A stretch of DNA of 64,000 bases from Escherichia coli (GTDB taxonomy: Bacteria; Pseudomonadota; Gammaproteobacteria; Enterobacterales; Enterobacteriaceae): assembly GCF_003334355.1 (NCBI RefSeq), contig NZ_QOWP01000016.1, one strand, 5' to 3'. Under the pieces are notes generated by a model. It searched no databases. It had not been told where the DNA came from and worked only from the letters and a program-made list of their open reading frames with translations. A program made the position numbers and the translations under genes. This document shows positions 35,486 to 47,147 of the stretch, in pieces; the first letter of the stretch is position 1; each line of letters begins with the position of its first letter.

Positions 35486-36625
35486 ATGAGCGCGGGAAGC
35501 CCAAAATTCACCGTTCGCCGCATTGCGGCTTTGTCACTGGTTTCGCTATGGCTGGCAGGCTGTTCTGACACTTCAAATCCACCGGCACCGGTCAGCTCCG
35601 TTAATGGCAATGCACCTGCAAATACCAATTCTGGTATGTTGATTACGCCGCCGCCGAAAATGGGGACGACATCTACAGCGCAGCAACCGCAAATTCAGCC
35701 GGTGCAGCAGCCACAAATTCAGGCTACTCAACAACCGCAAATCCAGCCAGTGCAGCCAGTAGCTCAGCAGCCGGTACAGATGGAAAACGGACGCATCGTC
35801 TATAACCGTCAGTATGGGAACATTCCGAAAGGCAGTTATAGCGGCAGTACCTATACCGTGAAAAAAGGCGACACACTTTTCTATATCGCCTGGATTACTG
35901 GCAACGATTTCCGTGACCTTGCTCAGCGCAACAATATTCAGGCACCATACGCGCTGAACGTTGGTCAGACTTTGCAGGTGGGTAATGCTTCCGGTACGCC
36001 AATCACTGGCGGAAATGCCATTACCCAGGCCGACGCAGCAGAGCAAGGAGTTGTGATCAAGCCTGCACAAAATTCCACCGTTGCTGTTGCGTCGCAACCG
36101 ACAATTACGTATTCTGAGTCTTCGGGTGAACAGAGTGCTAACAAAATGTTGCCGAACAACAAGCCAACTGCGACCACGGTCACAGCGCCTGTAACGGTAC
36201 CAACAGCAAGCACAACCGAGCCGACTGTCAGCAGTACATCAACCAGTACGCCTATCTCCACCTGGCGCTGGCCGACTGAGGGCAAAGTGATCGAAACCTT
36301 TGGCGCTTCTGAGGGGGGCAACAAGGGGATTGATATCGCAGGCAGCAAAGGACAGGCAATTATCGCGACCGCAGATGGCCGCGTTGTTTATGCTGGTAAC
36401 GCGCTGCGCGGCTACGGTAATCTGATTATCATCAAACATAATGATGATTACCTGAGTGCCTACGCCCATAACGACACAATGCTGGTCCGGGAACAACAAG
36501 AAGTTAAGGCGGGGCAAAAAATAGCGACCATGGGTAGCACCGGAACCAGTTCAACACGCTTGCATTTTGAAATTCGTTACAAGGGGAAATCCGTAAACCC
36601 GCTGCGTTATTTGCCGCAGCGATAA
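35486..36625 (+). CDS. nlpD: Murein hydrolase activator lipoprotein NlpD (LysM + M23 peptidase-like)
   Basis: 379 aa; lipobox LAGCS; Q/P-rich repeat region. Confidence 0.93.
35681..35752 (+). repeat. Three imperfect 24-bp tandem repeats inside nlpD, encoding QQPQIQ(P/A)(V/T)
   Basis: CAGCAACCGCAAATTCAGCCGGTG / CAGCAGCCACAAATTCAGGCTACT / CAACAACCGCAAATCCAGCCAGTG. Confidence 0.6.
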
Positions 36626-36687
36626 ATCGGCGGAACCAGGCTTTTGCTTGAATGTTCCGTCAAGGGATCACGGGTAGGAGCCACCTT

Positions 36688-37680
36688 ATGAGTCAGAATA
36701 CGCTGAAAGTTCATGATTTAAATGAAGATGCGGAATTTGATGAGAACGGAGTTGAGGTTTTTGACGAAAAGGCCTTAGTAGAAGAGGAACCCAGTGATAA
36801 CGATTTGGCCGAAGAGGAACTGTTATCGCAGGGAGCCACACAGCGTGTGTTGGACGCGACTCAGCTTTACCTTGGTGAGATTGGTTATTCACCACTGTTA
36901 ACGGCCGAAGAAGAAGTTTATTTTGCGCGTCGCGCACTGCGTGGAGATGTCGCCTCTCGCCGCCGGATGATCGAGAGTAACTTGCGTCTGGTGGTAAAAA
37001 TTGCCCGCCGTTATGGCAATCGTGGTCTGGCGTTGCTGGACCTTATCGAAGAGGGCAACCTGGGGCTGATCCGCGCGGTAGAGAAGTTTGACCCGGAACG
37101 TGGTTTCCGCTTCTCAACATACGCAACCTGGTGGATTCGCCAGACGATTGAACGGGCGATTATGAACCAAACCCGTACTATTCGTTTGCCGATTCACATC
37201 GTAAAGGAGCTGAACGTTTACCTGCGAACCGCACGTGAGTTGTCCCATAAGCTGGACCATGAACCAAGTGCGGAAGAGATCGCAGAGCAACTGGATAAGC
37301 CAGTTGATGACGTCAGCCGTATGCTTCGTCTTAACGAGCGCATTACCTCGGTAGACACCCCGCTGGGTGGTGATTCCGAAAAAGCGTTGCTGGACATCCT
37401 GGCCGATGAAAAAGAGAACGGTCCGGAAGATACCACGCAAGATGACGATATGAAGCAGAGCATCGTCAAATGGCTGTTCGAGCTGAACGCCAAACAGCGT
37501 GAAGTGCTGGCACGTCGATTCGGTTTGCTGGGGTACGAAGCGGCAACACTGGAAGATGTAGGTCGTGAAATTGGCCTCACCCGTGAACGTGTTCGCCAGA
37601 TTCAGGTTGAAGGCCTGCGCCGTTTGCGCGAAATCCTGCAAACGCAGGGGCTGAATATCGAAGCGCTGTTCCGCGAGTAA
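36688..37680 (+). CDS. rpoS: RNA polymerase sigma factor RpoS (sigma-38), apparently intact
   Basis: 330 aa from [24 protein letters not shown]; codon 33 at 36784-36786 is GAG (Glu). Confidence 0.95.
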
Positions 37681-37696
37681 GTAAGCATCTGTCAGA

Positions 37697-37730
37697 AAGG
37701 CCAGTCTCAAGCGAGGCTGGCCTTTTCTGT
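37697..37730 (+). terminator. rpoS intrinsic terminator
   Basis: AAGGCCAGTCTC pairs with GAGGCTGGCCTT (about 12 bp, one wobble), loop AAGC, tail TTCTGTG. Confidence 0.6.
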
Positions 37731-37736
37731 GCACAA

Positions 37737-37770
37737 TAAAAGGTCCGATGCCCATCGGACCTTTTTATTA
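37737..37770. terminator. Bidirectional intrinsic terminator between rpoS and ygbN
   Basis: AAAAAGGTCCGATG cc CATCGGACCTTTTTATT: 10-bp stem flanked by an A-tract and a T-tract. Confidence 0.6.
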
Positions 37771-37773
37771 AGG

Positions 37774-39138
37774 TCAAATTACCGCCCATACGCACCAGGT
37801 AATTAAGAATCCGGTAAAACCGAGAATGGTCGTTAACACTGTCCAGGTTTTCAGACCGTCTGCTACCGACAACCCCAGATATTTGGTCACAATCCAGAAC
37901 CCTGAGTCATTAATATGTGACGCACCAAGCCCACCAAAGCAGGCTGCCAGCGTCACCAATACGCACTGAATCGGATTCAATCCCATCACCGCTTCTGAGA
38001 GTAACCCGCCGGTTGTCAGTATTGCTACGGTTGCTGACCCCTGCGATGCACGCAGCGCCAGTGAAATAATAAATGCGGCTGGTAACAGAGGCAGGTCAAT
38101 CATTTGTAGCATGTTGGCAAGGGCTTTGCCGACGCCCGATTCCACCAGCACTTTGCCAAATACCCCTCCAGCACCAGTAACCAAAATCACTACCGCCGCA
38201 GTAGGAAGCGCTGAGCCCATAATGTCGCTGGTGTGTTGTAAGCTCCAGCCGCGACGTAAAGCCAATAACCAGAATGCCAGCACCAGCGCAATCATTAGAG
38301 CTACCATTGGTGAGCCGATCAGCTGTAGCGTACCAAGCAGGGGATGCGAAGGCGGCATCAGTGTTGCGGAAACCGTACCCGCCATGATAATCGCGATAGG
38401 AATAACAATTAGCGAGGTGACCAGCGCGACGCCCGGTGGATTTATTTTATCGCTTAATTTTGTCGCGCCTTCCTCACTGGCCGGAGCCAGTTGCATCTGT
38501 TCCAGTACTTCTACTGACATCGCATATTGGCGCTTATTGATTATTTTCGCTGCAAAGTAGCCAACAACCCCTACGGGAATAGAAATCGCAATACCGATGA
38601 TGGTTAGCCAGCCGATGTCTGCGTGGAGTAACCCCGCTGCGGCGACAGGGCCTGGATGCGGCGGTACCGCCACGTGAACAGTGAGCATGATCCCAGCGAC
38701 AGGCAGGCCAAATTTGAGTGGCGATATTTTGGCAACCTTGGCAAAACCGTAAATGATTGGCGCAAGAATAATAAAGCCGACATCAAAGAAGACGGGAATA
38801 CCGAGGAAGAACGCTGCCAGAGTCAGCGCAGCGATAGTTCGTTTGTCACCTAACTTGCGACTGAAATAATTAGCCAGTGACTCTGCACCACCAGAGTGTT
38901 CGATCATACGCCCCAGCATAGCGCCCAGACCAATAATAATAGTGACGGAACCAAGCACACCGCCCATCCCGGCGATCATCACTTTACCCACTTCGCCCGC
39001 CGGTATACCTGCCGCAAGTGCGACTAACAGGCTGACGAGGAGCAAAGCAACGAATGGTTGTACCTTTGCCTTGATGACCAGCAGCAACAGCATGATTACG
39101 CCAGCTAACGCAATGCATAACAATGTAATTGTGGACAT
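37774..39138 (-). CDS. ygbN: GntP-family acid-sugar permease
   Basis: 454-aa polytopic membrane ORF. Confidence 0.9.
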   Translation of the reverse strand: MSTITLLCIALAGVIMLLLLVIKAKVQPFVALLLVSLLVALAAGIPAGEVGKVMIAGMGGVLGSVTIIIGLGAMLGRMIEHSGGAESLANYFSRKLGDKRTIAALTLAAFFLGIPVFFDVGFIILAPIIYGFAKVAKISPLKFGLPVAGIMLTVHVAVPPHPGPVAAAGLLHADIGWLTIIGIAISIPVGVVGYFAAKIINKRQYAMSVEVLEQMQLAPASEEGATKLSDKINPPGVALVTSLIVIPIAIIMAGTVSATLMPPSHPLLGTLQLIGSPMVALMIALVLAFWLLALRRGWSLQHTSDIMGSALPTAAVVILVTGAGGVFGKVLVESGVGKALANMLQMIDLPLLPAAFIISLALRASQGSATVAILTTGGLLSEAVMGLNPIQCVLVTLAACFGGLGASHINDSGFWIVTKYLGLSVADGLKTWTVLTTILGFTGFLITWCVWAVI

Positions 39139-39226
39139 GGGAAACCCTGTCTGAAAGTTATAGTTAACCTACCCCATCCGTAGATGGGGGGATGTATGGG
39201 TACGTTGTAATTAGGGATTTAACGAA

Positions 39227-40003
39227 TTAGCGCCAGGCGTCAAACCAGCCAAGCCCTTCTTCGGTGAGGCCACGAGGTTTATATTCACAACCGATCCAGC
39301 CCTGATATCCCACCTCATCGAACAGGCGGAACAGCCACGGATAGTTGATTTCTCCATCGTCCGGTTCATGTCGATCAGGTAGTCCGGCAATTTGTACGTG
39401 CGCATATTTCCCGGCGTAGTCGCGGATTAAATGCGTCAGGTTGCCATCTACTTTTTGCGCATGAAAAGTATCTAGTTGAATAAACACGTTATCTCGCGCA
39501 ACCTCTTCAACAATAGCCAGTGCCTGATACTGGCTGGAGAAGAGATAATGAGGCTTAACGCCGGGGCTGAGTGCTTCAACTAATATTCGCTTGCCGTGTG
39601 GCGCAAAGCGGTCGGCAGCGTAGCGGATATTATCGATAAATACTGCCCGGTACCGTTCAGCATCTTCGCCAGCGGGCACGACGCCTGCCATCACATGGAC
39701 TTGTTCACAATTGAGCGCCAATGCATATTCCAGTGCCAGGTCGATGTCTGCGTGTGCTTCGTGCTCACGTCCGGGAAGGGCGGATAATCCCCATTCCCCC
39801 GCATTAATATCTCCGGGAGCGGTATTGAACAGCGCCAGTGTCAGATGGTTTTGCTCCAGTTGCTTTTGGATTTGCAGGGTGGAGTAGTTATAGGGAAACA
39901 GAAATTCCACAGCATCGAACCCGGCTTTTCGCGCTGCGGCGAAGCGTTCAATAAAAGGCACTTCGGTGAACATCATGGATAAATTAGCTGCAAAACGAGG
40001 CAT
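39227..40003 (-). CDS. ygbM: Hydroxypyruvate isomerase-like TIM-barrel enzyme (2-oxo-tetronate isomerase, OtnI)
   Basis: 258 aa. Confidence 0.88.
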
Positions 40004-40007
40004 TGCA

Positions 40008-40646
40008 TTAACTCCTTAATTCCGCAATTTCACCTGCGGTCAGATAACGGATCGGGCGGTCACCGAGAATAAAAATCAGCTTTGCCGTTTCCTCCAGCTC
40101 TTCCATATTGTTGGCGGCTTCTTGCAGGCTTTCACCGCAAACCACTGGGCCATGATTTGCCAGTAAAAAAGCCTGATTGTCTGCTGCCAGTTCCGCCAGA
40201 TCCTGTGCGATGCGTTTATCGCCCGGTCGGTAATAAGGCACCAGCGGGACATTTCCCATCCGCATCACCACGTATGGTGTGAACGGACGAATAACGTTGC
40301 TGCTGTCCAGCCCTTGCAGGCAGGAAAGCGCCGTCGACCATGTGCTGTGCAAATGCACCACCGCTTTACAGCGCGGATTGTTGCGATACAGCGCCAGATG
40401 AAAGAGCACCTCTTTCGAGGGTTTGTCACCACTTAACCATTCGCCATCCGCGGCGACTTTGGAAAGCCGCTGCGGATCGAGATTGCCCAGGCATGAACCT
40501 GTCGGTGTCGCCAGTAAATTCCCGTCAGGTAAAAGCAGCGACAGATTGCCAGCCGAACCGGTTGCATAGCCGCGCTGAAAGAATGAACTGGCAATCCGCG
40601 TCATCTCCTCTCGCAAAGACTGCTCTACTTTTGCGAAATCGCTCAT
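40008..40646 (-). CDS. ygbL: Class II aldolase/adducin-family decarboxylase (OtnC)
   Basis: 212 aa. Confidence 0.88.
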
Positions 40647-41905
40647 GATAAAAACTCTCTTTGGGCTCGTGAAAAAAAGGCGTCATCACCGAAGTTGCCA
40701 GATTTAAGGGCGAGTGAGACAGGCTTATCCAGTGCGTTTACCCACGGCACGCCGGGGGAAATGGTTGGGCCAATATGAAACCCTTTTATTCCCAGGCTCT
40801 GTGTGACTACGCCGGAGGTCTCACCGCCTGCGACAATAAAGCGTGTCACGCCTTCCGCTGCTAACCGCGCCGCTAGTTGAGAAAACAGTGTTTCTACTGC
40901 CTGACTGGCTTTTTGTGCACCGTATTGCTGTTGAATTGCTGCCAATGCGTCAGTGCTGGCGGTGGCAAAAACCAGTGGAGCAAGTACACTTTCCTGGCCC
41001 AGAACCCACTCTGCCAGTTCGTGTGCATAAGCGGCCAGAGTTTCAATTGAGAGGCAGCGTGCCACATCAACTTCACGGGCTGGTGCAATTTGACGGTAAT
41101 GTGCTACCTGGCGGTTGGTCATTTGAGAGCATGAACCGGAGAGCACTACGCCGCGCCCAGCGAGCGGACGCCCTGCTTTGCGAGCCTGGTTACCGTTTTC
41201 TTGCGCCCACTGCCGGGCCAGGCCAATCGCCAGACCAGAACCGCCCGTTACCAGTGGGGCATCGCGCAAGGCTTCTCCCTGAATTTCCAGATGGTGTTCG
41301 GTCAGCGCATCAAGCACCGCGTAGCGGTAGCCCTCTTGCTGTAAGCGAGCCAGCTCTTGACGAACGGCATCCACACCTTGTTCGAAAACATGTGCCGAAA
41401 CGACGCCGCAGCGCCCTGTGGATTGCGCTTCAACCAGACGGGGAAGATAGCTGTCGGTCATGGGATTTACCGGGTGATGGCGCATCCCGGATTCGGCCAG
41501 CAGTTGATTCATTACGAACAAATACCCCTGATAAACCGTACGTCCGTTGACCGGCAGGGCCGGAGAGAAGACCGTAAACGGCGTGTCGAGAGCATCCATT
41601 AAGGCATCGGTAACCGGGCCAATATTACCTTTCGCCGTACTGTCGAAAGTAGAGCAGTATTTGAAATAGATCTGTTTGCAACCTTGCTGTTGCAACCAGC
41701 TCAGAGCCGCCAGCGATTGCTGTGTGGCTTCAACCACTGGACAGGAGCGCGTTTTCAGGCTGATCACCAGTGCGTCGATTGCTTCCGGCATTTTACCTGT
41801 TGGAACACCGTTAATTTGTACCGTTGGTAGACCGTTTTCCACCAGAAAACTGGCGATATCCGTCGCGCCGGTAAAATCATCGGCGATAACGCCAATCTTG
41901 ATCAT
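40643..41905 (-). CDS. ygbK: Four-carbon acid-sugar kinase, DUF1537 family (OtnK)
   Basis: 420-aa ORF starting MIKIGVIADDFTGATD. Confidence 0.85.
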   Translation of the reverse strand: MIKIGVIADDFTGATDIASFLVENGLPTVQINGVPTGKMPEAIDALVISLKTRSCPVVEATQQSLAALSWLQQQGCKQIYFKYCSTFDSTAKGNIGPVTDALMDALDTPFTVFSPALPVNGRTVYQGYLFVMNQLLAESGMRHHPVNPMTDSYLPRLVEAQSTGRCGVVSAHVFEQGVDAVRQELARLQQEGYRYAVLDALTEHHLEIQGEALRDAPLVTGGSGLAIGLARQWAQENGNQARKAGRPLAGRGVVLSGSCSQMTNRQVAHYRQIAPAREVDVARCLSIETLAAYAHELAEWVLGQESVLAPLVFATASTDALAAIQQQYGAQKASQAVETLFSQLAARLAAEGVTRFIVAGGETSGVVTQSLGIKGFHIGPTISPGVPWVNALDKPVSLALKSGNFGDDAFFSRAQREFLS

Positions 41906-42810
41906 GATTTCGCTCCCGGTAGAGTGATGCCAGAGAAAATCTTGATAACTGCGCTATCGTCTTCTTTCCCGTAACCCGCGTTACTGGCGCTGGTGAACAT
42001 ATTCAATGCTGTTGAGGCCAATGGCAGCGGGAAGTGCAGGGCTTTGGCTGTATCGGCAACCAGACCAAGATCCTTAACAAAAATATCGACGGCTGAATGC
42101 GGGGTGTAATCGCCATCCACCACATGACGCATCCGGTTTTCGAACATCCAGGAATTTCCGGCGGCATTGGTCACGACGTCATACATCACATCCAGCGGGA
42201 TCCCCGCACGGGCTGCAAGTGCCATCGCTTCGGCTCCGGCAGCAATATGTACGCCCGCTAACAACTGGTGAATAATTTTTACGGTCGAACCTAGTCCCGG
42301 TTCTGCACCTATGCGATAAACTTTTCCGGCAACGGCTTCCAGCACGGGTGCCAGTCGTTCAAAGGCAATATCGCTACCGGAGGCCATGACAGTCATTTCA
42401 CCGTTAGCGGCTTTTACTGCACCACCAGAAACTGGCGCATCCAGCATTTCCAGATCGAATCCAGCCAGAGCGGTAGCAATTTCTTGCGCATCAGCACTAG
42501 CGATAGTGGAAGAAACCATTACTGCCGTACCGGGTTTCAGATGTTGTGCAACGCCTGTTTCACCAAACAGCACCTGTTTAACCTGGGCCGCATTGACCAC
42601 CAGCACCAGCAGTGCGTCCAGTTTTTCGGCAAACGTCGCGGCGTTATCAGAAACCCCGCAAGCACCTGCCTCTTTCAACGTAGCGCAGGCATTGCTGTTC
42701 AGGTCTGCGCCCCAGGTAGAAAGACCTGCGCGGACACATGACAGTGCTGCTCCCATTCCCATTGACCCTAAGCCAACGATACCGACATGAAACTCAGATC
42801 CCGTTTTCAT
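41902..42810 (-). CDS. ygbJ: NAD-dependent L-threonate dehydrogenase (3-hydroxyisobutyrate dehydrogenase family, LtnD)
   Basis: 302 aa; N-terminal GxGxxG (VGIVGLGSMGMGAA). Confidence 0.88.
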   Translation of the reverse strand: MKTGSEFHVGIVGLGSMGMGAALSCVRAGLSTWGADLNSNACATLKEAGACGVSDNAATFAEKLDALLVLVVNAAQVKQVLFGETGVAQHLKPGTAVMVSSTIASADAQEIATALAGFDLEMLDAPVSGGAVKAANGEMTVMASGSDIAFERLAPVLEAVAGKVYRIGAEPGLGSTVKIIHQLLAGVHIAAGAEAMALAARAGIPLDVMYDVVTNAAGNSWMFENRMRHVVDGDYTPHSAVDIFVKDLGLVADTAKALHFPLPLASTALNMFTSASNAGYGKEDDSAVIKIFSGITLPGAKS

Positions 42811-42975
42811 CTGCTCTCCTTGTTAATTTAAGTGATATTTTGTTTGATATTGTGAATATAAGCGCTGGAAGATAACGATATGATGATCTGATTCACATAA
42901 ATTAACATTGTGTGTTATTTTATGTGAACTAAGCGTTAGTTGCGCCGCGCACGTTTCGCAGGCAAATAGCGTAGA

Positions 42976-43773
42976 ATGTCAGCAGGACAAAGGAAGGAGC
43001 AAAAGTTGATACCCGTAGAGCGTCGCCAAATCATCCTTGAGATGGTAGCTGAAAAAGGCATTGTCAGTATTGCTGAACTAACGGACAGAATGAATGTGTC
43101 ACATATGACCATTCGTCGGGATTTACAAAAACTGGAGCAGCAGGGAGCCGTTGTGCTGGTGTCCGGAGGCGTCCAGTCTCCGGGACGCGTGGCGCATGAA
43201 CCTTCTCATCAGGTAAAAACTGCGCTGGCAATGACGCAAAAAGCGGCTATTGGCAAGCTGGCGGCAAGTCTTGTTCAGCCGGGAAGTTGTATCTATCTGG
43301 ATGCGGGAACGACCACGTTAGCGATAGCACAGCATCTGATTCACATGGAGTCACTGACTGTGGTCACAAACGATTTCGTTATTGCGGACTACTTGCTCGA
43401 CAACAGTAATTGCACAATTATTCACACTGGCGGTGCAGTGTGTCGGGAAAACCGTTCCTGTGTCGGGGAAGCCGCTGCGACCATGCTGCGCAGCCTGATG
43501 ATTGATCAGGCTTTTATTTCTGCATCGTCATGGAGTGTGCGGGGGATTTCTACGCCAGCGGAAGATAAAGTCACGGTGAAACGGGCGATTGCCAGTGCCA
43601 GCCGCCAGCGAGTTTTGGTCTGTGATGCGACGAAATATGGTCAGGTGGCGACATGGCTGGCGTTACCATTAAGCGAGTTTGATCAGATTATTACAGACGA
43701 CGGTTTGCCGGAGAGTGCCAGTCGCGCGCTGGTGAAGCAGGATCTCTCTTTGCTGGTAGCGAAAAATGAATAA
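42976..43773 (+). CDS. ygbI: DeoR-family transcriptional regulator; start uncertain (ATG 42976 or TTG 43006)
   Basis: HTH region SIAELTDRMNVSHMTIRRDL; divergent from ygbJ. Confidence 0.85.
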   Translation: MSAGQRKEQKLIPVERRQIILEMVAEKGIVSIAELTDRMNVSHMTIRRDLQKLEQQGAVVLVSGGVQSPGRVAHEPSHQVKTALAMTQKAAIGKLAASLVQPGSCIYLDAGTTTLAIAQHLIHMESLTVVTNDFVIADYLLDNSNCTIIHTGGAVCRENRSCVGEAAATMLRSLMIDQAFISASSWSVRGISTPAEDKVTVKRAIASASRQRVLVCDATKYGQVATWLALPLSEFDQIITDDGLPESASRALVKQDLSLLVAKNE

Positions 43774-43796
43774 TGGCCTGCAATAACACCGGGTTA

Positions 43797-43837
43797 CTCA
43801 TGCTTCACAGAAGAAGCATGAGACTACTTTATTTTAT
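43797..43837 (+). terminator. Intrinsic terminator after ygbI
   Basis: CTCATGCTTC pairs with GAAGCATGAG (10 bp), loop ACAGAA, tail ACTACTTTATTTTAT. Confidence 0.55.
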
Positions 43838-44480
43838 AAAATGACAGCCGCCCGCTGTTCGGCGATCCGGTATCAATATAAATCTGGTTAGCGAACGTCT
43901 GAATGTTATCAAACATCATATGTCCAAATATAAAATAATCAGCGCCGTTTATTTGTTGTAACTCGCCATTAAGCGATTTCTGCACACGATCAACAGGCCA
44001 GAGTAATTCGCTCTCCGCTATTTCTTTACCAAAGAGATATTCACTCCCCGGATAATCTGCATGTGCGATGGCATATTTTATGTTGTCGTTAGTGATTTCA
44101 ATAATATGTGGAAGGTGATGGAATTTCAGCAACAGATCTATTGCCTCTTGTTGCTCTGAATCATTTAAATCGAAAAACCAGTCACCACCGCTGGCAAGCC
44201 ACATATTGCCATCGCCAGTTTCGAATGCCTCAAGCGCCATCGCTTCGTGGTTGCCTTTAACCGACGTAAACCAGGGTTGGTTTAGCAGGCGCAGGACGTC
44301 AAGACTCTCCGGTCCACGATCAATATTATCGCCGACAGAAATAAGTAAGTCGATTTCGGGGAAAAAAGAGAGTTGATGTAAGCGGGATTGTAATAACTGA
44401 TATTCACCATGAATATCACCAACGACCCATATATGGCGATAGTGATGGGCATTGATTTTTTGATAGCGTGTAGATGGCAT
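43824..44480 (-). CDS. pphB: Serine/threonine protein phosphatase 2
   Basis: 218 aa; metallophosphatase motifs GDIHG and GDNIDRG. Confidence 0.9.
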   Translation of the reverse strand: MPSTRYQKINAHHYRHIWVVGDIHGEYQLLQSRLHQLSFFPEIDLLISVGDNIDRGPESLDVLRLLNQPWFTSVKGNHEAMALEAFETGDGNMWLASGGDWFFDLNDSEQQEAIDLLLKFHHLPHIIEITNDNIKYAIAHADYPGSEYLFGKEIAESELLWPVDRVQKSLNGELQQINGADYFIFGHMMFDNIQTFANQIYIDTGSPNSGRLSFYKIK

Positions 44481-44585
44481 GGTTTTACCCTGTAAAATAA
44501 GCTTTCCTATTATACAGGGTGTTTTTATTTTATTCGTCAGTTGTCGTTAATATTCCCGATAGCAAAAGACTATCGGGAATTGTTA

Positions 44586-47147
44586 TTACACCAGGCTCTT
44601 CAAGCGATAAATCCACTCCAGCGCCTGACGCGGGGTGAGTGAATCCGGATCAAGATTTTCCAGAGCTTCGACCGCAGGCGAAGTTTCTTCTGGTACTGAC
44701 AGCAAAGACATTTGCGTACCATCCACTTGCGTAGCGGCGGCGTTCGGCGAAATGCTTTCCAGCTCACGCAGCTTTTGCCGTGCGCGCTTAATAACCTCTT
44801 TTGGCACGCCTGCCAGAGCTGCAACCGCCAGGCCGTAGCTTTTGCTCGCCGCGCCATCCTGCACGCTGTGCATAAAGGCAATGGTGTCGCCGTGCTCCAG
44901 TGCATCGAGATGCACGTTAGCGACGCCTTCCATTTTCTCCGGTAACTGGGTCAGCTCGAAATAGTGGGTAGCAAACAGCGTCAATGCCTTAATCTTATTC
45001 GCCAGATTTTCTGCGCACGCCCACGCCAGCGACAGACCATCGTAAGTGGACGTTCCACGCCCGATCTCATCCATCAATACCAGACTGTACTCGGTGGCGT
45101 TATGTAAAATATTGGCGGTTTCGGTCATCTCCACCATAAAGGTTGAGCGCCCGGACGCTAGGTCATCTGCCGCGCCTACGCGGGTAAAGATGCGATCGAT
45201 AGGTCCAATCTCGACTTTTTGTGCCGGTACATAGCTGCCGATGTAGGCCATCAGCGCAATCAGTGCGGTCTGGCGCATATAGGTACTTTTACCGCCCATG
45301 TTCGGACCGGTGATGATCAACATGCGGCGCTGCGGCGACAGATTCAGCGGGTTGGCGATAAATGGCTCATTCAGTACTTGTTCAACTACCGGATGGCGAC
45401 CTTCGGTAATGCGAATGCCCGGTTTATCAATGAAGGTCGGGCAGGTGTAGTTCAGGGTATAGGCGCGTTCCGCCAGGTTCACCAGCACGTCGAGTTCCGC
45501 CAGCGCGCTCGCGCTCTGTTGCAACGCTTCCAGATGCGGCAACAGCAGGTCGAACAACTCTTCATAAAGCTGTTTTTCCAGTGCCAGTGCTTTGCCTTTT
45601 GAGGTGAGAACTTTATCTTCGTACTCTTTTAGCTCTGGAATGATGTAGCGCTCGGCGTTTTTCAGCGTCTGGCGACGCATGTAGTTGATGGGTGCCAGAT
45701 GGCTTTGCCCACGGCTGATTTGAATGTAGTAGCCGTGCACCGCATTAAAGCCAACTTTCAGCGTGTCCAGGCCGGTACGTTCACGCTCGCGGACTTCCAG
45801 ACGCTCCAGATAATCGGTCGCGCCGTCAGCCAGCGCGCGCCACTCATCCAGCTCTTCGTTATAGCCCGATGCGATAACACCACCGTCGCGTACCAGCACC
45901 GGCGGTGTGTCGATGATTGCTCGCTCCAGCAGATCGCGCAGCTCGGCAAACTCGCCCATCTTCTCGCGTAGCGCCTGTACCGGTGCACTATCGACAGTTT
46001 CTAACTGCGCACGCAGCTCCGGCAGTTGCTGGAAAGCGTGGCGCATACGGGCCAGATCGCGTGGGCGAGCAGTTCGTAAAGCCAGACGTGCCAGAATACG
46101 TTCCAGGTCGCCGACCTGACGCAGTACCGGCTGCAACTCGGCGGTGAAATCCTGCAATGCGCCAATAGTTTGCTGGCGCTCAAGCAACACGCGGGTATCG
46201 CGCACTGGCATATGCAGCCAGCGTTTCAGCATACGACTACCCATCGGCGTGACGGTGCAGTCGAGCACAGAAGCCAGCGTATTTTCCGCACCGCCCGCCA
46301 GGTTCTGAGTAATTTCCAGGTTACGACGTGTCGCGGCATCCATAATGATGCTGTCCTGCTCACGTTCCATGGTGATGGAACGAATATGCGGCAGAGTCGT
46401 ACGTTGGGTATCTTTCGCATACTGCAACAGACAACCGGCAGCACAAAGTCCGCGCGGCGCGTTCTCGACGCCAAAACCGACCAGATCGCGGGTCCCAAAT
46501 TGCAGATTCAACTGCTGGCGCGCGGTGTCGATTTCAAACTCCCACAGCGGGCGACGGCGCAGGCCGCGACGGCCTTCAATTAACGACATTTCAGCAAAAT
46601 CTTCTGCATACAGCAGTTCCGCAGGATTAGTGCGTTGCAGTTCTGCCGCCATCGTTTCCCGGTCAGCCGGTTCGCTCAGGCGAAAACGCCCGGAACTGAT
46701 ATCCAGCGTCGCGTAGCCGAAACCTTTGCTGTCCTGCCAGATAGCCGCCAGCAGGTTGTCCTGACGCTCCTGCAACAGGGCTTCATCGCTGATGGTGCCT
46801 GGCGTAACGATACGCACAACTTTGCGCTCAACCGGACCTTTGCTGGTCGCCGGATCGCCAATTTGTTCGCAGATGGCAACGGACTCGCCCTGATTCACCA
46901 GTTTGGCGAGGTAGTTTTCCACCGCATGGTAGGGGATCCCCGCCATCGGGATCGGCTCTCCCGCTGAAGCGCCGCGTTTGGTCAGTGAGATATCCAGCAG
47001 TTGCGACGCGCGTTTTGCGTCGTCATAAAACAGTTCATAAAAATCACCCATCCGGTAAAACAGCAGGATCTCGGGATGCTGGGCTTTCAGCTTGAGATAC
47101 TGCTGCATCATGGGCGTATGGGCGTCGAAATTTTCTATTGCACTCAT
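44586..47147 (-). CDS. mutS: DNA mismatch repair protein MutS
   Basis: 853 aa; Walker [10 protein letters not shown]. Confidence 0.96.

Follow-up and report, generated by a model that had tools for sequence, protein, structure and literature searches.

Prediction of the YgbI operators and of the ygbJ promoter in the ygbI-ygbJ spacer of Escherichia coli

Background

In Escherichia coli, the ygbJKLMN operon is transcribed away from ygbI, the gene of a DeoR-family repressor, and the two are separated by a 195-bp spacer. The question raised by this locus is which bases of the spacer are recognized by YgbI, and how these are arranged with respect to the promoter of ygbJ. We have addressed it in a stretch of 64,000 nucleotides from an E. 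coli genome (RefSeq assembly GCF_003334355.1, contig NZ_QOWP01000016.1; the whole stretch is called the window below), in which the cluster occupies positions 37,774 to 43,773. Comparison with orthologous loci points to four conserved 15-bp sites, called A, A2, B and C, as the most likely YgbI operators, and one of them overlaps a published site of the cyclic AMP receptor protein (CRP).

An initial annotation of the window, made from the letters alone, had called this an uncharacterised operator region, which proved to be out of date, as YgbI chromatin immunoprecipitation with exonuclease digestion (ChIP-exo), RNA-seq and growth data as well as a CRP site had already been published. ChIP-exo found a single YgbI site genome-wide, located between ygbI and ygbJ (Gao et al. 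2021 NAR, PMC8464067). In the same study, deletion of ygbI gave log2 fold changes of 5.55 for ygbJ, 5.15 for ygbK, 5.09 for ygbL, 4.62 for ygbM and 3.95 for ygbN, i.e. a 16- to 47-fold derepression of ygbJKLMN, and the mutant grew on L-tartrate; the authors proposed an indirect control of ygbLM and ygbN (PMC8464067). Mutations in ygbI have also been tied to activated ygbJKLMN in evolution on m-tartrate (Sastry et al. 2019, PMC6892915; Guzman et al. 2019, PMC6452873), and ygbI loss-of-function mutants overexpress ygbI as well as ygbJKLMN (PMC6452873). Furthermore, a 2026 Footprint-seq preprint reports a CRP site, 'taTGTGAatcagaTCACCata', between ygbI and ygbJ with an inferred in vitro dissociation constant (Kd) of 8.4 nM, and tabulates it among the novel sites below 10 nM (PMC12871828). 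Shimada et al. (2014) found RNA polymerase sigma-70 bound in the spacer and flagged H-NS in their genomic SELEX (gSELEX) tables, and a weak FlhDC gSELEX peak has been reported there too. A 'YgbI box' at dgcZ is mentioned in PMC13131220, where it is described as unpublished and YgbI was without effect. In the literature that could be searched, no sequence of the YgbI operator is given, nor is there a demonstration that E. coli grows on L-threonate via the ygb operon; the published E. coli phenotypes are those of ygbI mutants on m- and L-tartrate. The ygb locus is a known system, and the predicted base-level map of its operators and promoter is new, an incremental addition.

Results and Discussion

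A recurrent 15-bp unit in the spacer

The initial annotation had singled out repeated TGTGAA- and TGTGTG-type motifs as a possible YgbI operator. A stretch of 78 bp holds three copies of the hexamer TGTGAA (42851, +; 42892, -; 42923, +). Since its 28 matches on both strands of the 64 kb correspond to ~0.09 expected per 195 bp, its clustering in the spacer is real; over the whole window it is rarer than expected (28 vs 36), and is informative by its local clustering only. TGTGTG has a single occurrence (42908-13), which consists of the spacer between sites B and C, itself not conserved, and the start of site C; it is not a conserved element. A repeat search revealed a 16-nt inverted repeat (42892-42907 and 42913-42928; 94% complementary, 5-nt gap) with a third copy at 42821-35, and the pattern TGTTAANNNNWGTGA, allowing at most one mismatch, has four matches in the 64 kb, three of which, including both exact ones, lie in the spacer. 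The TGTGAA hexamers are the ends of 15-bp units that fit TGTTAA-N4-WGTGA, that is, two TGTKA pentamers 10 bp apart. The units are listed here with their footprint z scores and matrix scores in bits, both described below.

42821-42835, unstranded: site A, TGTTAATTTAAGTGA, proposed YgbI operator (z = 14.9; 24.3 bits; 13/13 genera, fixed position)
42841-42855, unstranded: site A2, TGTTTGATATTGTGA, weaker tandem copy (9.8 bits; TGTT-N6-TGTKA in 13/13, exactly 20 bp from A)
42893-42907, unstranded: site B, TCACATAAATTAACA (reverse complement TGTTAATTTATGTGA), proposed YgbI operator, inverted with respect to A (z = 15.3; 24.4 bits; 13/13 genera)
42913-42927, unstranded: site C, TGTTATTTTATGTGA, third strong copy (z = 12.7; 20.6 bits)

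Site A lies just upstream of the ygbJ Shine-Dalgarno sequence, while B and C form a 35-bp palindrome with a 5-bp spacer. Comparative footprinting over 13 genera supports the assignment of the TGTGAA repeats to YgbI, with the amendments that the unit is a 15-mer, not a hexamer, and that one TGTGA (42893-97) doubles as a CRP half-site. On these grounds the four conserved sites are most likely YgbI operators. An RNA element in the spacer or leader was also considered and rejected, no Rfam family reaching its threshold in 36500-44700; since the same motif is found in both orientations and on both sides of the promoter, it would be recognized as DNA rather than RNA.

Conservation of the sites across Enterobacterales

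A scan for YgbI in species-representative genomes gave four loci, one of them an unrelated 35% homologue, and the ortholog set was then compiled from a protein search and contigs. It comprises 12 loci with ygbI and ygbJ (ltnD) divergent, at YgbI identities of 64-96%, from E. albertii, Entomohabitans, Salmonella, Serratia, Yersinia massiliensis, Dickeya, Pectobacterium, Citrobacter portucalensis, Pantoea ananatis and three more Enterobacterales. For the footprint, each 15-mer of the E. coli spacer was compared with its best match anywhere in the 11 other spacers on either strand, with 100 dinucleotide shuffles as control; the procedure is seeded by E. coli but position-blind. Strong peaks fall at 42821 (A), 42893 (B) and 42913 (C). 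Lower ones are seen at 42848-52 (z = 8-10, the predicted ygbJ -10 element), at 42963 (z = 6.5, the ygbI -10 element) and around 42985 (z ~5.8, the ygbI Shine-Dalgarno region), and z is ~0 over the rest of the spacer, including 42928-58. A motif search across orthologous ygbJ-ygbI regions, which the initial annotation had put forward as a check, thus did yield conserved elements, namely these 15-mers.

The order of the elements is the same in 13/13 genera: site A (TGTTAAnnnnAGTGA) beside the ltnD Shine-Dalgarno sequence, A2 at +20 bp, TAnAtT, GTGA-N6-TCACA, and the inverted site B. The distance from A to B is 72-73 bp in all of them, with unconserved DNA in between, and the overlap of the CRP site with B through TCACA is likewise fixed in 13/13 genera. 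Site C, in contrast to B, is present only in Escherichia, Salmonella, Entomohabitans and two further loci (L008 and L009).

A position weight matrix (PWM) was trained on the non-Escherichia A and B sites only, and hence without any site C; with it, A, B and C received the three high scores listed above, compared with a best score elsewhere in the 64 kb of 12.5 bits, and the score of A2 ranks in the top 16 of 128,000 positions. In ~81 kb of orthologous loci, PWM matches of at least 15 bits are located in ygbI-adjacent spacers, with one exception within a coding region. Single-nucleotide polymorphisms among the sampled E. coli strains spare the pentamers and affect the spacers or the variable centres of the sites. 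The best off-target match in the window, TGTGAATAATTGTGC (43412-43426, -), lies inside the ygbI coding region. The five orthologues nearest to E. coli have it at the corresponding codon position, in Salmonella with a single base difference; its conservation probably reflects coding constraint, an internal weak operator being the alternative.

Two more findings speak for a local regulator. In Yersinia massiliensis (L011, 3985-4072), whose cluster is without ltnD and ygbN, a second complete module is found between ygbI and an operon for a major facilitator superfamily (MFS) transporter and an NAD-dependent epimerase/dehydrogenase; it consists of a B-like site, TGTGA-N6-TCGCA, TAGATT, an A2-like and an A-like site, the strong sites being 73 bp apart. 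These transporter and dehydrogenase genes are likely members of the YgbI regulon that replace the missing functions. In addition, the more distant genera Serratia, Yersinia, Dickeya, Pectobacterium and Citrobacter have an operator-like TCACAATnnTTATCA close to the start of ygbI, and in the first three of these it directly follows the ygbI -10 element TAAAAT, in the same register as A2 after the ltnD -10 element. The clade with site C (Escherichia, Salmonella, Entomohabitans, L008 and L009) has no such start-site operator at ygbI.

The same evidence bears on whether the repeats could instead be sites of global factors, such as ArcA with its direct TGTTA repeats, additional CRP half-sites, or H-NS nucleation in AT-rich DNA. 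The sequence TGTTAATT resembles the ArcA box, ArcA and YgbI were co-enriched on the dicC promoter bait, the spacer has a GC content of 33-36% and was flagged for H-NS by gSELEX, and one TGTGA is a real CRP half-site. Nevertheless, the pentamers are spaced by 10 bp and the ArcA direct repeats by 11 bp, hardly any matches to the motif occur outside ygbI-adjacent spacers in ~145 kb scanned, and the complete module is duplicated at a second pathway operon in Yersinia. Moreover, the conserved TTAACA of site B falls outside the 22-bp CRP site, and A and C are without a partner half-site for CRP. An origin of the repeats in global regulation is accordingly rather improbable in our judgement. The dicC promoter, on which YgbI was enriched as bait in Reg-Seq, was itself tried as further support for the motif and discarded: the dicC-dicA spacer contains no PWM match of at least 5 bits and only isolated TGTTAG/TGTTAA pentamers.

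The CRP site and the predicted ygbJ promoter

Two elements between A2 and B are needed to place the operators with respect to transcription of ygbJ.

42882-42897, unstranded: CRP site, centre 42889/90, TGTGAatcagaTCATC on the ygbJ sense strand (Kd 8.4 nM in K-12, PMC12871828; 13/13 orthologues)
42857-42862, minus strand: predicted ygbJ -10 element, TATATT on the reverse complement (TAnAtT kept in orthologues; footprint shoulder at 42848-52)

The promoter-distal half of the CRP site has its TCACA, five bp, in common with site B. The conserved TAnAtT hexamer is located 30-35 nt downstream of the CRP-site centre, which corresponds to -12 to -7 if CRP is at -41.5. This geometry would be that of a class II CRP promoter, with ygbJ transcription predicted to start near 42848. 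Relative to this predicted start, A2 extends from -7 to +8, A from +14 to +28, the CRP core from -34 to -49, B from -45 to -59 and C from -65 to -79; A2 abuts the predicted -10 element and covers the predicted start itself.

Compared with TGTGA-N6-TCACA, the CRP core matches at 8/10 bases in the window and at 9/10 in K-12, and the binding data refer to the K-12 allele. The window carries an A at 42883, which turns TCACC into TCATC in the promoter-proximal CRP half-site on the sense strand, and a second variant position is 42878; K-12 and all the other sampled strains have a G at 42883. Among 4134 matching complete E. coli genomes, only that of strain PSS-12, from human faeces in Ecuador, contains the 70-mer 42860-42929 exactly. 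The A at 42883 makes for a weaker half-site and may reduce the activation of ygbJ by CRP in the strain of the window.

The start and the promoter of ygbI

The initial annotation had set the spacer at 42811-42975, the longest ygbI open reading frame (ORF) beginning with the ATG at 42976. This is 30 nt short: the true spacer is 42811-43005, and ygbI begins with the TTG at 43006. The RefSeq start is this TTG, which is preceded by a strong Shine-Dalgarno sequence (AGGAAGGAG); the YgbI profile match begins at residue 11 of the ORF from ATG 42976; and the ygbI transcription start, mapped 21 nt 5' of the corrected start codon by Mendoza-Vargas et al. (PMC2760140), converts to about 42985, downstream of that ATG. 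The start codon of ygbI is TTG or GTG in most orthologues, which fits with a low synthesis of the repressor.

42972-42977, plus strand: ygbI -10 hexamer TAGAAT (PMC2760140; footprint peak at 42963)

At the ygbI -10 element, GCGTAGAAT or ACGTAAAAT is found in 10 of the 12 orthologues.

The B/C palindrome might, instead of being an operator, be kept mainly because two divergent sigma-70 promoters overlap in it (ygbI, TTCACA-18-TATTTT; ygbJ, TTCACA-16-GTTAAT). The RNA polymerase holoenzyme has a gSELEX peak in the spacer, with predicted hexamers in B/C, and a promoter scan returned TTCACA-18-TATTTT with a TG extension. On the other hand, no site C is found beyond the Escherichia/Salmonella clade, whereas site B and the geometry of CRP site and -10 element are universal; the mapped ygbI start uses another, conserved -10 element at 42972-77; and the 15-mer recurs at site A beside a ribosome-binding site, where a promoter is unexpected. 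We consider this explanation of the palindrome unlikely, and it is in any case compatible with the operator model, as an operator may overlap a secondary promoter.

The published ChIP-exo interval

The published 31-bp ChIP-exo interval of YgbI is 2859304-2859334 in the numbering of NC_000913.2 (PMC8464067), and corresponds to window positions 42928-42958. The older numbering of the dataset was confirmed by its dhaK sites, and the +1978 offset was verified on the FliA motif reported by Fitzgerald et al., whose converted position is 42049-76, as predicted. The interval is GC-rich and abuts site C. Between site C and the ygbI -10 element (42928-42965), inspection by eye shows short GC-rich palindromes that differ between the species of the Escherichia clade (TGCGCCGCGCA in E. 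coli, AACAAACCGTTTGTT in Salmonella and GTAGCCCGGCTAC in L009); as a conserved element they were rejected, both their sequence and their position varying between species.

It has to be asked, then, whether the true YgbI operator lies inside 42928-42958, for example at small palindromes such as TGCGCCGCGCA, and the AT-rich 15-mers serve another purpose. This interval is the sole experimental coordinate for YgbI binding, its conversion is verified, and it covers the -35 region of the promoter mapped for ygbI. Yet it is unconserved, with z ~0, though the recognition helix of YgbI is invariant, and it overlaps no plausible ygbJ promoter, although ygbJ is derepressed ~47-fold. Because the ChIP-exo authors themselves place the YgbI site over the ygbJ promoter (PMC8464067), and because the interval borders exactly on the end of site C, the mismatch is most likely a peak-calling offset, and we give little credence to an operator confined to the interval. 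None of the three alternatives considered here, namely global factors, divergent promoters and an operator in the ChIP-exo interval, accounts for a conservation that is linked to the regulator and extends to the whole module.

Proposed mechanism

The binding of YgbI to the spacer and the repression that it exerts are taken from the literature, and the assignment of the sites from the comparison, while we infer promoter occlusion, competition with CRP, looping and the nature of the effector. YgbI, presumably oligomeric like other DeoR-family repressors, would occupy the tandem sites A2 and A and thereby block RNA polymerase, while YgbI on B (and C) would exclude CRP-cAMP. A/A2 could be bridged to B across the 72-73 bp, about 7 helical turns, that separate them. 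The pathway intermediate that would lift repression is, by analogy with the DeoR family, probably a phosphorylated one, for example 3-oxo-tetronate 4-phosphate.

The five genes ygbJKLMN would be read as one transcript from this single regulated promoter, since they overlap or nearly abut, since their fold changes fall smoothly along the operon, and since nothing resembling an operator or a terminator hairpin is seen ahead of ygbL, ygbM or ygbN. There are no PWM matches of at least 8 bits between 37774 and 42810, and the 88-bp gap between ygbM and ygbN contains neither a terminator-like hairpin nor a promoter-like site on the minus strand. In view of these empty PWM, hairpin and promoter scans, the idea that ygbLM and ygbN have operators or promoters of their own was rejected.

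Several points weigh against this model. The assignment of YgbI to A, A2, B and C is a prediction from sequence, and the ChIP-exo interval overlaps none of these sites. The promoters predicted by Shimada et al. are other ones and lie within the B/C palindrome, and the ygbJ start used here is itself predicted. Site A2 is weak, and the mapped E. coli ygbI promoter is ~57 bp from site C, an awkward distance for autoregulation. The published phenotypes concern tartrate, not L-threonate. Finally, the 13 spacers share ancestry, and part of their conservation is inherited rather than independently selected. With these points taken into account, we still regard the model as a whole, with YgbI operators at A/A2/B/C, a class II CRP site, occlusion combined with competition, and one transcript, as probable.

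A more specific and more tentative proposal, to which we give somewhat less than an even chance, is that YgbI and CRP read the same TGTGA within a rigid module, TGTTAA-N4-[TGTGA-N6-TCACC]-N20/21-(-10)-A2-N5-A, in which the repressor would both occlude the promoter and evict the activator. Such a module would have been kept through the history of Enterobacterales and copied in Yersinia, and the autoregulatory operator would have moved from the ygbI start to site C in the Escherichia/Salmonella clade.

Genes of the cluster

The genes on either side of the spacer were identified by NCBIfam equivalog models, whose curated cut-offs are exceeded by all of them.

43006-43773, plus strand: ygbI, DeoR-family repressor, 255 amino acids, TTG start (NF040890, 481.9 bits, cut-off 400; RefSeq start)
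41902-42810, minus strand: ygbJ/ltnD, L-threonate dehydrogenase, the operon's first gene (NF043037, 473.6 bits, cut-off 350)
40643-41905, minus strand: ygbK/otnK, 3-oxo-tetronate kinase, DUF1537 (NF043035, 598 bits, cut-off 350)
40008-40646, minus strand: ygbL/otnC, 3-oxo-tetronate 4-phosphate decarboxylase, class II aldolase fold (NF043034, 334.8 bits, cut-off 250)
39227-40003, minus strand: ygbM/otnI, 2-oxo-tetronate isomerase (NF043033, 394.5 bits, cut-off 325)
37774-39138, minus strand: ygbN, GntP-family transporter, the operon's last gene (NF007332, 828 bits, cut-off 524; RefSeq)

The coordinates given in the initial annotation agree exactly with the ORF list, and the models bear out its account of the cluster identity, the gene order and the divergent DeoR-family regulator. 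Its match to an L-threonate/D-erythronate pathway stands for the L-threonate branch, for which the equivalogs LtnD, OtnI, OtnK and OtnC form a complete set; the cluster has an L-threonate-type dehydrogenase only and no separate gene for a D-erythronate dehydrogenase. The ygbK ORF overlaps each of its neighbours by 4 nt; it scores 131.7 bits against the D-threonate kinase model, below the cut-off of 450, and OtnK orthologues carry PF07005 and PF17042. According to precomputed assignments for orthologues, including an E. coli YgbI of 99% identity, YgbI has an N-terminal HTH_DeoR domain (PF08220) and a C-terminal DeoRC domain (PF00455), and its recognition helix, VSHMT[IV]RRD, is the invariant one across the 12 aligned orthologues.

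The product of ygbM is named 'HPr family phosphocarrier protein' by RefSeq and NCBIfam NF007441. YgbM resembles hydroxypyruvate isomerase, and as it reaches the NF043033 equivalog level and its orthologues carry PF01261 (AP_endonuc_2), the HPr name seems to be a misannotation, by now carried by thousands of genomes.

The cluster is flanked by rpoS on one side and by pphB and mutS on the other. The 6.1-kb stretch is nearly identical to E. coli chromosomes, and 4577 of 5426 complete genomes contain it in full. The FliA (sigma-28) motif of Fitzgerald et al. (2014) is present as an exact match at 42049-42076 (-), inside ygbJ and upstream of ygbK. A contig labelled as an Oscillospiraceae bacterium metagenome-assembled genome (L002, RKCM01000024.1) encodes a YgbI 100% identical to that of E. 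coli, and is almost certainly a mis-binned E. coli contig. The literature that names ygbI or ygbJ also includes several papers about IncX3 and other resistance plasmids with blaSHV-12 or blaNDM, and one weak match (60-80% identity) in the E. coli genome search may be the single plasmid hit there. Presumably, the ygbI/ygbJ fragments on such plasmids derive from the Klebsiella chromosomal context of blaSHV.

Significance

The ygb locus is a part of the E. coli 'y-ome', with L-threonate, a breakdown product of ascorbate, or tartrate as candidate substrates. With the predicted operators and promoter, what is only vaguely known from ChIP-exo could be addressed directly by mutations, footprints and reporter fusions. 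The model would explain the joint derepression of five genes as that of one transcript and predicts catabolite control through CRP, and the motif may be used to find members of the YgbI regulon, e.g. transporters, in other Enterobacterales. The locus is ordinary in kind, a catabolic operon with its DeoR-type repressor and a CRP site, and the gain is incremental, not conceptual.

Comparison with known systems

The closest known system is ygbI/ygbJKLMN of E. coli K-12 itself, with the same genes in the same order, ~99.9% identical DNA, and YgbI as a single-target repressor acting in the same spacer. The present account differs from those published for K-12 in that the function was framed there as tartrate use and the control of ygbLM and ygbN as indirect, and in that the window has the rare A42883.

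L-threonate and D-erythronate catabolic pathways with DUF1537 kinases were reportedly described by Zhang et al. in PNAS in 2016. The ygb cluster resembles them in its four equivalogs and in its conservation across Enterobacterales, and differs in having the L-threonate-type dehydrogenase only.

DeoR-family repressors, such as GlpR, DeoR, AgaR and UlaR, use several repeated operators and respond to sugar-phosphate inducers. YgbI is like them in its HTH_DeoR and DeoRC domains, in its divergent regulator gene, in tandem sites at about two helical turns with others at looping distance, and in the predicted overlap of operators and promoter, whereas TGTTAA-N4-WGTGA is specific to the YgbI orthologues.

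Some repressor operators overlap CRP sites at CRP-dependent promoters and block the activator. The ygb spacer resembles these in the five-bp overlap of its CRP site, which would be in the class II position, with a proposed operator, and it differs from them in that the shared pentamer is conserved in 13 genera.

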